Of a stretch of DNA of 8,759 bases, positions 1,642 to 5,300 are shown piece by piece (position 1 is the stretch's first letter; each line of letters starts with the position of its first letter). Below the pieces are notes generated by a model. The model was given only the letters and a program-made list of their open reading frames with translations, did no database searches and was not told the DNA's origin. A program made the translations under genes and the position numbers. The DNA comes from a virus (taxonomy: Duplodnaviria; Heunggongvirae; Uroviricota; Caudoviricetes). The stretch is from the IMG/VR virus record IMGVR_UViG_2690316243_000011, one strand, 5' to 3'.

Positions 1642-1662
1642 NNNNNNNNNNNNNNNNNNNNN
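1642..1662. other. Assembly gap (21 N)
   Basis: Run of n at 1642-1662; the flanking sequences on the two sides differ, so the true distance and linkage are unknown. Confidence 0.95.
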
Positions 1663-1706
1663 TTTCAGTATAAGGCTCTGCCGGAAGGAATCTGGAAGAA
1701 TGAATA

Positions 1707-1783
1707 TGGCGCGCTGTACTGGATTCGAACCAGTGACCGATTGCTTAGAAGGCAATTGCTCTGTCCGGCTGAGCTAACAACGC
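1707..1783 (-). tRNA. argO: tRNA-Arg (anticodon UCU), copy B, 77 nt, CCA encoded
   Basis: Identical to copy A except one base in the 3' acceptor strand (ACAGCGC versus ACAACGC), which gives a G-U pair. Its upstream flank differs from that of copy A. Confidence 0.85.
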
Positions 1784-1796
1784 ATGATGCAGATAA

Positions 1797-1873
1797 TGGA
1801 CCGCCATCGGGGACTTGAACCCCGCGCAGCCAGCTTCGAAGGCTGGCGCTCTTTCCTGATGAGCTAATGGCGG
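1797..1873 (-). tRNA. argN: tRNA-Arg (anticodon UCG), 77 nt, CCA encoded
   Basis: Cloverleaf: acceptor CCGCCAT/ATGGCGG, D-stem GCTC/GAGC, anticodon stem CCAGC/GCTGG with loop CTTCGAA, T-stem CGGGG/CCCCG with loop TTCAAGT, discriminator T, CCA. The 5' base is C, which is unusual but paired. Confidence 0.8.
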
Positions 1874-1880
1874 TATGTGA

Positions 1881-1956
1881 TGGTGGCCCTTGCTGGATTT
1901 GAACCAGCGACCTGGCGATTATGAGTCGCTCGCTCTCACCACTGAGCTAAAGGGCC
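1881..1956 (-). tRNA. ileZ: tRNA with CAU anticodon, Ile2 (lysidine)-type by similarity to E. coli ileX; a tRNA scanner would probably call it Met
   Basis: GGCCCTTTAGCTCAGTGGTGAGAGCGAGCGACTCATAATCGCCAGGTCGCTGGTTCAAATCCAGCAAGGGCCACCA: anticodon loop CTCATAA, T-loop TTCAAAT, CCA encoded. It resembles the tRNA-Ile2 sequence as I remember it. Confidence 0.85.
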
Positions 1957-1965
1957 GGGAGCCGC

Positions 1966-1994
1966 ATAATAACGACGCGTAATTAATTCTTCAA
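1966..1994 (-). promoter_or_regulatory. Candidate sigma70 promoter for the tRNA cluster
   Basis: Minus strand: TTGAAG (1994-1989), 17-bp spacer, TATTAT (1971-1966); the predicted start falls 1-3 nt before the mature 5' end of the first tRNA. The -35 sits just past the methyltransferase stop codon. Pattern match only. Confidence 0.4.
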
Positions 1995-1996
1995 TA

Positions 1997-3055
1997 TCAT
2001 CCGTTCTGGCTGACTAAATCCTGTACTTCCCGAACCGTCTGCTCAAAACGTTCAGTCTCCAGCTCAACGCCAATTGCACGACGCCCGAGCGCCAGTGCCG
2101 CTTTCACTGTCGAACCCAACCCCATGAAAAAATCTGCAATCAGGTCACCCGGACGACTGCTAGCGCTGATTATCTGCTGCAGCATTTCTGCCGGTTTTTC
2201 GCACGGATGTTTCCCGGGATAGAACTGCACCGGTTTATGCGTCCACACATCGGTATACGGCACCTGCACCGTCACGCCAAAATACCGCCGCAGATGTTTA
2301 TATTCACTCAGCAGCTCCGCATACTGCCGGTTCAGTGAGGTATACGTATCCACCAGCTGGTGGTGGAGCTTTTCCAGTTCACCACGCCGATGCTTCTCTT
2401 CTGCCACCCGGGCAAACAGCGCCTGTAATTTCAGATAATCGCTTTCATTCGGCAACTGCCACTGACCGGCACTGAACCAGTGCGACACCATGTTTTTCTT
2501 TCCTGTGGCATCTGCAATCTGTTTTGCCGTTATCCCCAGGGCAGCTCGCGCATCACGAAAGTAAGAAATCAGCGGGGCCATCACATGCTGTTTCAGTGCA
2601 CTGCCCTTCGCCGCATACCCGGCATCTTTCGGACGATACGGCCCCTGATAATGTTCCGCGAACAGAATGCGCTCTGTGGCGGGGAAATACGCCCGCAGGC
2701 TTTCCTTGTTGCATCCGTTCCAGCGTCCGGACGGCTTCGCCCAGATAATATGGTTCAGCACACTGAAGCGTTCACGCATCATGATTTCGATATCAGATGC
2801 CAGGCGATGACCACAGAACAGGTAAAGACTTCCGGCAGGTTTCAGCACCCGCCAGAACTGCGCCAGACACTGGTCCAGCCACTTCAGGTAATCATCGTCG
2901 CCCTTCCACTGGTTATCCCAGCCCTCAGGCTTCACTTTAAAGTACGGCGGGGCCGTGACTATCAGGTCAACAGAATTTTCGGGTAACGACCGGATAAATT
3001 CCAGGCAGTCGGCGTTGATTAACTCACAACTGGATATTTTTACAGTATTAAGCAT
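1997..3055 (-). CDS. DNA methyltransferase, beta-class N6-adenine/N4-cytosine family; orphan, no restriction endonuclease partner
   Basis: 352 aa. Motif IV-like DLIVTAPPYF near the N-terminus and motif I-like DFFMGLGST near the C-terminus, in the beta-class order. Motif IV reads APPY rather than the canonical D/N/S-PPY (confirmed on the DNA: acg gcc ccg ccg tac). Confidence 0.85.
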   Translation of the reverse strand: MLNTVKISSCELINADCLEFIRSLPENSVDLIVTAPPYFKVKPEGWDNQWKGDDDYLKWLDQCLAQFWRVLKPAGSLYLFCGHRLASDIEIMMRERFSVLNHIIWAKPSGRWNGCNKESLRAYFPATERILFAEHYQGPYRPKDAGYAAKGSALKQHVMAPLISYFRDARAALGITAKQIADATGKKNMVSHWFSAGQWQLPNESDYLKLQALFARVAEEKHRRGELEKLHHQLVDTYTSLNRQYAELLSEYKHLRRYFGVTVQVPYTDVWTHKPVQFYPGKHPCEKPAEMLQQIISASSRPGDLIADFFMGLGSTVKAALALGRRAIGVELETERFEQTVREVQDLVSQNG

Positions 3056-3147
3056 GGATCATTAAGCCTGTCTCTGATAGGCTCATTCTGCTTTTGCGCA
3101 AAGCAGTGGGCCTGAGGTTTGCTTGTGAACCCAACGCATGAGCAGAT

Positions 3148-3178
3148 GGCTGGTGGGTGCCCCTAACACCCACCAGCC
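3148..3178. other. Perfect 12-bp stem-loop between the small wHTH ORF and the methyltransferase start
   Basis: ggctggtgggtg (3148-3159), loop cccctaa, cacccaccagcc (3167-3178). No U-tract on either strand, so it is not a canonical intrinsic terminator. Confidence 0.7.
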
Positions 3179-3194
3179 GCCCATTTACCACAAA

Positions 3195-3219
3195 TAAAAA
3201 AGCCTTCACTGCGGAAGGC
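3195..3219 (-). terminator. Intrinsic terminator overlapping the stop of the 65-aa ORF
   Basis: Minus-strand RNA: gccuuc-cgcagu-gaaggc (6-bp stem) followed by UUUUUUAUUU (plus-strand A-run 3195-3201). Confidence 0.6.
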
Positions 3220-3403
3220 GTCTGTAACAACCGAACTGATAGTCTGCCAGACCCGCCATAACCAGCTGGGTCAGTATTAACTGGCAGCGTTCGCGTGAAA
3301 GGTAAGTATTCTGCGCTATCTCCCCGACTGTCGCCGGTTCGGTAACGCTTAATTCATTAAACACCACTCTGGCGGTTTCTGTCATATCCTGCTGTTTTAG
3401 CAT
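3206..3403 (-). CDS. Small hypothetical protein (65 aa) with a winged-helix/HTH-like segment; possible DNA-binding regulator
   Basis: ATG at 3403 with upstream AAGGAAAAG. The segment TVGEIAQNTYLSRERCQLILTQLVMAGLADY fits a helix-turn-helix pattern. It has its own terminator and lies just upstream of the methyltransferase. Confidence 0.5.
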   Translation of the reverse strand: MLKQQDMTETARVVFNELSVTEPATVGEIAQNTYLSRERCQLILTQLVMAGLADYQFGCYRRLPQ

Positions 3404-3521
3404 GTCTTTTCCTTTTCCGGTTAACGTGACACACCAATAACTCTTGTCGAAAAAGCCAGCAAGCTGAAAGACAGGTATTCACCGCCACCAGCGCGTTTAC
3501 TGTACTGACGCGATTTCAGTC

Positions 3522-3547
3522 ATAAAAAACCCGCTCGGCGGCGGGTT
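3522..3547 (-). terminator. Intrinsic terminator about 40-65 nt downstream of the Q stop codon
   Basis: Minus-strand RNA: aacccgc-cgccga-gcggguu followed by UUUUUUAUG. Confidence 0.6.
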
Positions 3548-3586
3548 GTAGAAACTCTTCTAACGTCAGGCATAAAACGCCCATCG

Positions 3587-4441
3587 TTATGACGAATTTA
3601 CCACAGATTCCGGAAAAATCAACCTAGTTACCTTTTTTAACTGCCGCTCAGCCCATGCTTCTTCAATATCAAACCGGGTCACCAGCGCATCATAAAATTT
3701 CTTAACTGTTTTTTCCCATGACGCGCGTGTTATCTGGTTTGTCACCTCGCATATAGCATTAAATGCCTCCGTTGATGGTAGTCTTTCATAGCCACGACCA
3801 CCACAACGCTGGCAGTCTCTGATAACAGGCATACCACGTTTTACCGACTCTTCACGATGAATGGCGACACCACGCCCACGGCAATCCTTACAGGCGGTGG
3901 AAACCTCACCCTTTCCGCCACACTCCGGACAGGCAACTTTTACCACCTCTCTGACTTTTTTCCATTCTTCCCAGTAAGACGGATACACACCTTTCGTACA
4001 CTTTGCCCATACCGGCGGCTTACCATCCGGATACTGGATCTTGTTTGTAAAAACCTCGCTTTCAATAAATTTTTTTCCGTGACAGCAGGGGCACTGTTTT
4101 TTGCTCGCCGCGCTACGGGCATAATCTTCAAACGCATACGAAGCCATAATACGCATCACTGCCGGTTTTATTTCTGCCGGGAGTTTTCTTAACGCCGCCA
4201 CGCGATCACACCGACTGAGTGCATATTCTGTCAGCAATTCTGTTGCCCGCTCTCTGTCATTCATACTAATGCCCATTTTCCCAAGGAACGCAGAAACCCC
4301 CATCTCAGCCCGATTCTGTGTCATGCCCTGCGCGGCCATCACATCAGTGATACTCAGCGCATCTTTCGACGTTGAGGCCGATGCATCAGTCAGGCCGGGG
4401 GATTTTGGGGAGTAGTATTTCGGTAAATCTTCCAGTTTCAT
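3587..4441 (-). CDS. Q: Late-gene antiterminator Q, Q82/QuuQ-type, with CxxCxGxG zinc-finger repeats; complete copy
   Basis: 284 aa. Motifs CPCC, CPECGGKG, CKDCRGRG and CQRCGGRGYERLPS, with a C-terminal segment WEKTVKKFYDAL resembling phage 82 Q / QuuQ as I recall them. Its ATG overlaps the stop of the upstream rusA fragment (ATGA). Position downstream of rusA is as expected for Q. Confidence 0.7.
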   Translation of the reverse strand: MKLEDLPKYYSPKSPGLTDASASTSKDALSITDVMAAQGMTQNRAEMGVSAFLGKMGISMNDRERATELLTEYALSRCDRVAALRKLPAEIKPAVMRIMASYAFEDYARSAASKKQCPCCHGKKFIESEVFTNKIQYPDGKPPVWAKCTKGVYPSYWEEWKKVREVVKVACPECGGKGEVSTACKDCRGRGVAIHREESVKRGMPVIRDCQRCGGRGYERLPSTEAFNAICEVTNQITRASWEKTVKKFYDALVTRFDIEEAWAERQLKKVTRLIFPESVVNSS

Positions 4442-4551
4442 TTTTTGACCTGCCCTTCAAGCATTATGGGATAAATCTTCACCCCCAGACGTCCACCAGA
4501 TACTGGCTGAGCACGAACGATATTGATTTCATCAAACTGCTCATCGTCCAT
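4438..4551 (-). pseudogene. Duplicated 3' fragment of rusA (37 codons)
   Basis: Translates MDDEQFDEINIVRAQPVSGGRLGVKIYPIMLEGQVKK, matching the C-terminus of the full RusA ORF with a few substitutions. It begins at the duplication junction and ends in an ATGA overlap with Q copy 1. Confidence 0.6.
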
Positions 4552-5300
4552 TANAATTTCTTAACTGTTTTTTCCCATGACGCGCGTGTTATCTGGTTTG
4601 TCACCTCGCATATAGCATTAAATGCCTCCGTTGATGGTAGTCTTTCATAGCCACGACCACCACAACGCTGGCAGTCTCTGATAACAGGCATACCACGTTT
4701 TACCGACTCTTCACGATGAATGGCGACACCACGCCCACGGCAATCCTTACAGGCGGTGGAAACCTCACCCTTTCCGCCACACTCCGGACAGGCAACTTTT
4801 ACCACCTCTCTGACTTTTTTCCATTCTTCCCAGTAAGACGGATACACACCTTTCGTACACTTTGCCCATACCGGCGGCTTACCATCCGGATACTGGACCT
4901 TGTTTGTAAAAACTACGCTTTCAATAAATTTTTCCCCATAGCAACAAGGGCACTGCTTTTTACTCGCTGCGCTGCGGGCATAATCCTCAAAAGCGTACGA
5001 AGCCATAATGCGCATCACTACCGGTTTTATTTCTGCCGGAAGTTTTCTCAACGCCGCCACACGATCGCACCGACTGAGTGCATAATCTGCCAGTAATTCT
5101 GTTGCCCGCGCCCTGTCATTCATACTGATGCCCATTTTCCCCAGGAACGCAGAAAACCCCATCTCAGCCCGATTCTGTGTCATGCCCTGCGCGGCCATCA
5201 CATCAGTGATACTCAGCGCATCTTTCGACGTTGAGGCCGATGCATCAGTCAGGCCGGGGGATTTTGGGGAGTAGTATTTCGGTAAATCTTCCAGTTTCAT
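4551..5300 (-). CDS. Q: Second copy of antiterminator Q, C-terminally truncated at the duplication junction (249 aa, last codon contains the N)
   Basis: ATG at 5300 overlaps the RusA stop (ATGA). The protein is co-linear with Q copy 1 up to ...WEKTVKK, then a TTN codon and TAA. It lacks the last ~35 residues of copy 1. Confidence 0.5.
   Translation of the reverse strand: MKLEDLPKYYSPKSPGLTDASASTSKDALSITDVMAAQGMTQNRAEMGFSAFLGKMGISMNDRARATELLADYALSRCDRVAALRKLPAEIKPVVMRIMASYAFEDYARSAASKKQCPCCYGEKFIESVVFTNKVQYPDGKPPVWAKCTKGVYPSYWEEWKKVREVVKVACPECGGKGEVSTACKDCRGRGVAIHREESVKRGMPVIRDCQRCGGRGYERLPSTEAFNAICEVTNQITRASWEKTVKKX

Follow-up and report, generated by a model that had tools for sequence, protein, structure and literature searches.

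A lone APPY motif IV in a prophage-borne M.EcoGII-family methyltransferase gene of Shigella sonnei, most likely a short-read assembly artifact

In this work, we analyzed a stretch of Caudoviricetes DNA of 8,759 nucleotides (IMG/VR record IMGVR_UViG_2690316243_000011; hereafter the window), which carries a DNA methyltransferase gene with the catalytic tetrapeptide APPY. Judged by its sequence, it is an ordinary M.EcoGII-family gene and thus of an already known kind. The APPY motif is a singleton, being a trait of neither the lineage nor the family. Its source is most likely, and with modest confidence, a base-calling or consensus artifact that arose when a multi-copy prophage repeat was assembled from short reads, in which case the real gene would read DPPY, as do all other S. 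sonnei copies.

Results and discussion

Identity and motif layout of the methylase

The first-pass annotation described a beta-class DNA methyltransferase, and both the profile match and the motif order agree with that class. The open reading frame starts with ATG and encodes 352 amino acids with no frameshift or stop. PF01555 (N6_N4_Mtase) matches residues 29-340, and thereby the whole catalytic domain, with E = 7.3e-41 and 141 bits (cut-off 26.7). Motif IV lies in the N-terminal part and is followed by the target-recognition domain and then by a C-terminal motif I, which is the beta-class order (Table 1).

The unusual tetrapeptide had been assigned to motif IV, and this placement was confirmed by alignment to solved beta-class enzymes. 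In phmmer comparisons with solved structures (E-values of the PDB matches from 1e-13 to 1e-17), 'livtAPPY' aligns column by column with 'livaDPPY' of 9c3u and 8urk, and it also falls on the DPPY of M.RsrI, given as 'iicDPPY' or 'LIICDPPY'. Residues 31-38 read LIVTAPPY, and residues 309-316 read FFMGLGST, the latter aligned with the FxGxG AdoMet motif. The catalytic D/N/S at the first residue of motif IV is replaced by Ala35 in the deposited sequence. Its GCC codon occupies + strand positions 2951-2953, one base away from the 2952-2954 reported previously, and the variant base is 2952. As deposited, the protein is a member of the beta-class family by descent and is predicted to be inactive. It corresponds to CSQ36774.1 / WP_052990167.1 of Shigella sonnei, the only record of which, CXCY01000159.1 (GCA_001258795.1), is the window itself.

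Table 1. Features of the window that bear on the methylase gene, with their coordinates and the basis of each assignment.
Feature	Position	Strand	Basis or remark
Methylase gene; beta-class DNA N6-adenine methyltransferase, M.EcoGII family	1997..3055	-	ORF, PF01555, identity to M.EcoGII
Motif IV, A35-P-P-Y38	2942..2953	-	Alignment to DPPY of 9c3u, 8urk, RsrI, and relatives
Motif I (FxGxG), F310-M-G-L-G314	2114..2128	-	Leu313 is TTG at 2117-2119
Variant base	2952		G (GCC, Ala) vs T (GAC, Asp) in 9/9 sibling S. sonnei copies
21-N run, scaffold gap	1642..1662		Flanked by two tRNA-Arg(tct) copies, the duplicate at 1555-1631
tRNA-Met(cat), tRNA-Arg(tcg), and tRNA-Arg(tct), immediately 3' of the methylase	1707..1956	-	ARAGORN
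65-aa conserved ORF, preceding the methylase	3206..3403	-	Locus comparison; no Pfam match
Terminator-like hairpin and T-run, candidate tR', just downstream of Q	3528..3547	-	Consensus scan only
Late-gene antiterminator Q, 284 aa, upstream of the methylase	3587..4441	-	PF03589 Antiterm, E = 1.8e-53
Second, truncated Q allele	4551..5300	-	Joined via a single N at 4554 to the complete Q

Relationship to M.EcoGII and phage methylases

M.EcoGII is a beta-class enzyme from a family that is very large among E. coli prophages; it methylates adenine whatever the flanking sequence, in double-stranded DNA, single-stranded DNA, and RNA, is unexpressed in the lysogen, and is harmful if produced constitutively (Murray et al., 2018, PMC5778455). 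The window protein is 93% identical to it (323/349 residues, two gaps, including the target-recognition domain); the M.EcoGII sequence was machine-read from the supplement of the SUPREM paper (PMC11551740) and has a few OCR errors, such that the true identity is probably slightly higher. Within the first 100 residues, position 35 is the sole difference, and a few of the mismatches beyond this part resemble OCR errors. The two enzymes share the beta-class layout, with the DPPY position in the N-terminal part, the target-recognition domain in the middle, and FxGxG in the C-terminal part, as well as a prophage of E. coli or Shigella as the host element, and as expected for the family, the window gene has a prophage location with no cognate endonuclease. 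The window copy differs from M.EcoGII by its singleton APPY, by FMGLG in place of FMGSG (as in all S. sonnei copies), and by a C-terminus that is three amino acids longer (…LVSQNG vs …LIV). For the APPY form, context-independent adenine methylation is predicted to be absent.

Close relatives are also found among lambdoid and Stx phages. Genes annotated as 'DNA methylase' in Stx2_95 (BCI50293.1), phiP27, and 1720a-02 have 85-95% nucleotide identity to the window gene along their entire length, with 95% reached in Stx2 phages. The 1720a-02 methylase, described as very similar to M.EcoGII (Murray et al., PMC5778455), is 95.1% identical in a full-length alignment. The Stx phages and the window share a module composed of Q, the 65-aa ORF, the methylase, and tRNA-Met/Arg/Arg; in Stx2_95 the order is methylase, tRNA-Met, Arg, Arg, and stx2A, with stx2AB located after the tRNAs, whereas the window has no stx. 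The Stx-phage methylases have DPPY and FMGSG, unlike the APPY and FMGLG of the window.

Pairwise dN/dS values in the family range from 0.08 to 0.2, which indicates that the methylase protein is kept functional in general. Relaxed selection on the S. sonnei allele was considered and rejected, as its pairwise dN/dS of 0.08-0.18 is no higher than that of other members and gives no signal of long-term decay.

Prophage neighborhood and predicted expression

The gene had also been read as an orphan methylase of a phage with no restriction enzyme gene nearby. Both points stand: the neighbors are those of a lambdoid late region, namely, antiterminator Q, RusA, a DUF968/HNHc_6 protein, Hok, DUF1737/SASA, and tRNAs, and no cognate restriction endonuclease is found among the genes of the window. 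The exact 65-aa protein lies upstream of the methylase in nine of the ten loci fetched through it, the tenth having no methylase called, and in seven of the ten sibling loci.

The gene position downstream of Q and of the terminator-like hairpin (3547-3528) is consistent with Q-dependent late transcription, the hairpin being a consensus match only. By analogy with lambdoid phage architecture, the candidate tR' would make methylase expression dependent on Q. A scan for sigma-70 promoters between Q and the methylase gave nothing convincing for pR'. The late operon of such phages would comprise Q, the small ORF, the methylase, the tRNAs, and then stx or lysis genes. Extrapolating from the family, induction would lead to Q-antiterminated late transcription and production of the methylase, which would methylate adenines throughout the replicating phage DNA in any sequence context, and the packaged genomes would be protected in their next host from many adenine-sensitive restriction systems. 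The lysogen would keep the methylase off, thereby avoiding toxic global methylation. This expression timing is what the gene architecture suggests.

Several other observations concern the same region. The exact 284-aa Q occurs on 366 S. sonnei contigs of at most 84 kb and is absent from closed chromosomes, where the DUF968 and methylase proteins do occur. Either the closed genomes have or annotate another form (273 aa, as in E. coli relatives), or the 284-aa form is mainly a product of short-read assembly. In one E. coli relative (L007, 2889-5747), a C5 DNA methylase (PF00145) lies between Q and the 65-aa ORF and is adjoined by HEPN and GmrSD_N proteins on the opposite strand; this group looks like a defense or counter-defense islet in this hotspot of the late region. 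Downstream of its 65-aa ORF, the L007 locus has no called M.EcoGII-type methylase, and only the first ~450 nt match. Three other E. coli prophages (L002, L004, and L008) have a ParE/ParD toxin-antitoxin upstream of the DUF968-RusA-Q module (at 1802-2366) and a more diverged methylase of 361 aa with 83% nucleotide identity.

Singleton status of the APPY base

Sibling loci were fetched via the exact 284-aa Q protein, a look-up that reached true siblings. Among them, nine full-length methylase copies on eight S. sonnei contigs each share 1058 of 1059 bases with the window, and the sole mismatch in all nine is window position 2952, with G here and T there. The + strand context is GTACGGCGGG[G]CC in the window, such that the change reads GTACGGCGGG[T>G]CC. 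The contigs with the prefixes CXCN and CXAM adjoin the CXCY of the window and were taken to belong to the same submission series. At the protein level, the Asp form (DPPY; P0121) is found on 997 contigs, including closed chromosomes of 5.03 Mb, and the Ala form is found on one, the window. The exact proteins of its neighbors are common in S. sonnei (the DUF968 protein on at least 1,000 contigs, and Q as given above), and the methylase is unique to this contig.

Searches outside the siblings gave the same picture. We used a 31-mer centered on 2952 (TTAAAGTACGGCGGGGCCGTGACTATCAGGT), so that every 28-base megablast seed had to span the variant; the G and T versions differ only at that base. None of 5,426 complete E. 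coli genomes matched the G version, and the T version, used as a positive control, matched at 1,844 places in 1,465 of these genomes. A degenerate DNA pattern for DLIVT-A-PPYFKV had no match in either the species-representative genome collection or the metagenome collection, and the control pattern with the Asp codon gave 44 and at least 120 matches, respectively. Across the family, DPPY is present in all 120 cluster representatives, which are 73-98% identical and come from many genera of Enterobacterales. Since residue 35 is the only difference from the common S. sonnei allele, the APPY protein has no compensating changes.

Two other routes were discarded. In the complete E. coli genomes and a phage collection, both without S. 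sonnei, the best match was 97.2% identical, at which level a private change is indistinguishable from one of the lineage. The look-up via the 65-aa upstream protein, which is too widespread, led to nothing but diverged E. coli prophages (identity of 97.7% or less).

Assembly artifact or private mutation

The contig is a chimeric short-read scaffold, built in a repeat region from two or more similar lambdoid prophages; it has a 21-N gap and a second Q allele (Table 1), and no N occurs in 1663-4553, where Q, the 65-aa ORF, the methylase, and the three tRNAs lie. The methylase itself is multi-copy in S. sonnei: one sibling locus (L014) has two identical DPPY copies, and two others (L012 and L017) have truncated copies. 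Because the gene is multi-copy and the contig is a scaffold of a repeat region, the consensus at 2952 is less reliable. The change fits a known error context. On the + strand it is GGCGGG[T>G], and miscalling of GGT as GGG is the strongest motif of systematic Illumina error, worsened by upstream GGC motifs (Meacham et al., PMC3295828). An artifact was judged most likely because T>G after GGCGGG is a typical error of this kind. Against this, errors of this kind mostly affect one strand and as a rule are outvoted in the consensus, and at least one other isolated private difference, a synonymous C>T at 3950 that is mirrored at 4809, looks like a real SNP. On balance, we lean toward an artifact rather than a real private mutation.

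The sites 3950 and 4809 are equivalent positions in the two Q copies, where the window has T and the aligned sibling copies have C (16/16 and 12/12, respectively). This shared T could be a true strain SNP in both prophages, a result of gene conversion, or a product of read sharing during gap filling. Other private differences are clustered at 1698-1714, beside the 21-N gap.

Alternatively, G at 2952 may be a genuine mutation private to this isolate, with D35A killing the M.EcoGII-type methylase of a prophage that is cryptic or seldom induced, a reading that we consider plausible and put forward tentatively. Gene decay is known in Shigella, and it would not be surprising for a cryptic prophage gene to have acquired a real null mutation. 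Consistent with decay in progress, IS elements interrupt the prophage regions of sibling S. sonnei, in addition to the truncations mentioned above. The private SNP at 3950/4809 also implies that the strain may genuinely differ from the sampled siblings. Such a null allele would be neutral or could be mildly favored, since leaky expression of such a non-specific methylase harms the cell; the deleterious effect of constitutive M.EcoGII expression (PMC5778455) points in this direction. However, the allele is seen in one assembly only, the source is a low-quality repeat scaffold, and T>G in GGT is an unusual spontaneous change, yet the commonest systematic Illumina error.

The biochemistry of related enzymes also agrees with a null allele. 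The leading residue of the DPPY motif binds the target adenine; that of M1.HpyAVI binds the amino group of AdoMet as well. [quoted passage not shown] Both are the same Asp-to-Ala change at the first DPPY residue in enzymes of the same class, and both are inactive, although these mutants were made in the laboratory, in sequence-specific enzymes that are only distantly related to that of the window. A catalytically dead M.EcoGII mutant was sought in the MadID and SUPREM papers and none was found, so the argument for inactivation is built on CcrM and M1.HpyAVI. Should Ala35 prove genuine, a dead enzyme is the most probable outcome, not one of changed specificity.

This evidence bears as well on the suggestion in the first-pass annotation that APPY may confer unusual activity or specificity, which found no support: the motif comes down to a single base in one contig, and all siblings and relatives have DPPY. 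A functional methyltransferase of altered activity or specificity, i.e., an atypical orphan or anti-restriction enzyme defined by APPY, would fit the placement of the tetrapeptide at motif IV and the intact remainder of the protein, which is free of frameshifts and stops. Nevertheless, it is very unlikely, given that the searched collections contain no second occurrence and hence no evidence of selection for APPY, that the lone residue change relative to the common S. sonnei allele comes with no compensating changes, that the same substitution inactivates the beta-class enzymes tested, and that the specificity of the family is already established as sequence-independent. Even less probable is that the APPY copy acts as a dead partner subunit in a heterodimer with the DPPY copy of a second prophage (cf. 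MettL14 and MTA9, which are inactive members of other beta-class dimers), for although beta-class methyltransferases have been proposed to be obligate dimers with a division of labor (PMC7544214), M.EcoGII elutes as a dimer (PMC11551740), and two gene copies are possible per S. sonnei genome (L014), the L014 copies are identical and both DPPY, the APPY singleton has no sign of fixation, and nothing suggests that the homodimer needs an inactive partner.

The motif I variant Leu313

A second departure from the family consensus is found in motif I, and this one extends beyond the window. FMGLG, with Leu313 encoded by TTG, is common to all nine sibling S. sonnei copies and to the protein found on 997 contigs. 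In contrast, of 120 family representatives examined, 116 keep motif I; all 116 have Ser at this position, and none of the 120 has Leu. The Leu codon TTG is one base from the Ser codon TCG. In M1.HpyAVI, the equivalent change S198A weakens AdoMet binding about six-fold (PMC5173035), and by this comparison the S. sonnei-wide Leu313 allele may be attenuated. As an oddity of this gene, S313L, being S. sonnei-wide, is better supported than APPY.

Implications

The M.EcoGII family is already characterized and commercially used, and the APPY one-off carries little biological weight. Its main value is cautionary, in that a lone non-consensus catalytic residue in an N-containing draft scaffold of a repeat should first be checked against sibling genomes; here, the check needed one look-up via a neighboring protein. 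A real G at 2952 would represent a natural dead D35A allele on top of the S. sonnei-wide S313L, a combination that we regard as possible and somewhat doubtful. If it is true, the pair of changes would point to progressive disarming by S. sonnei of a potentially self-toxic prophage methylase.
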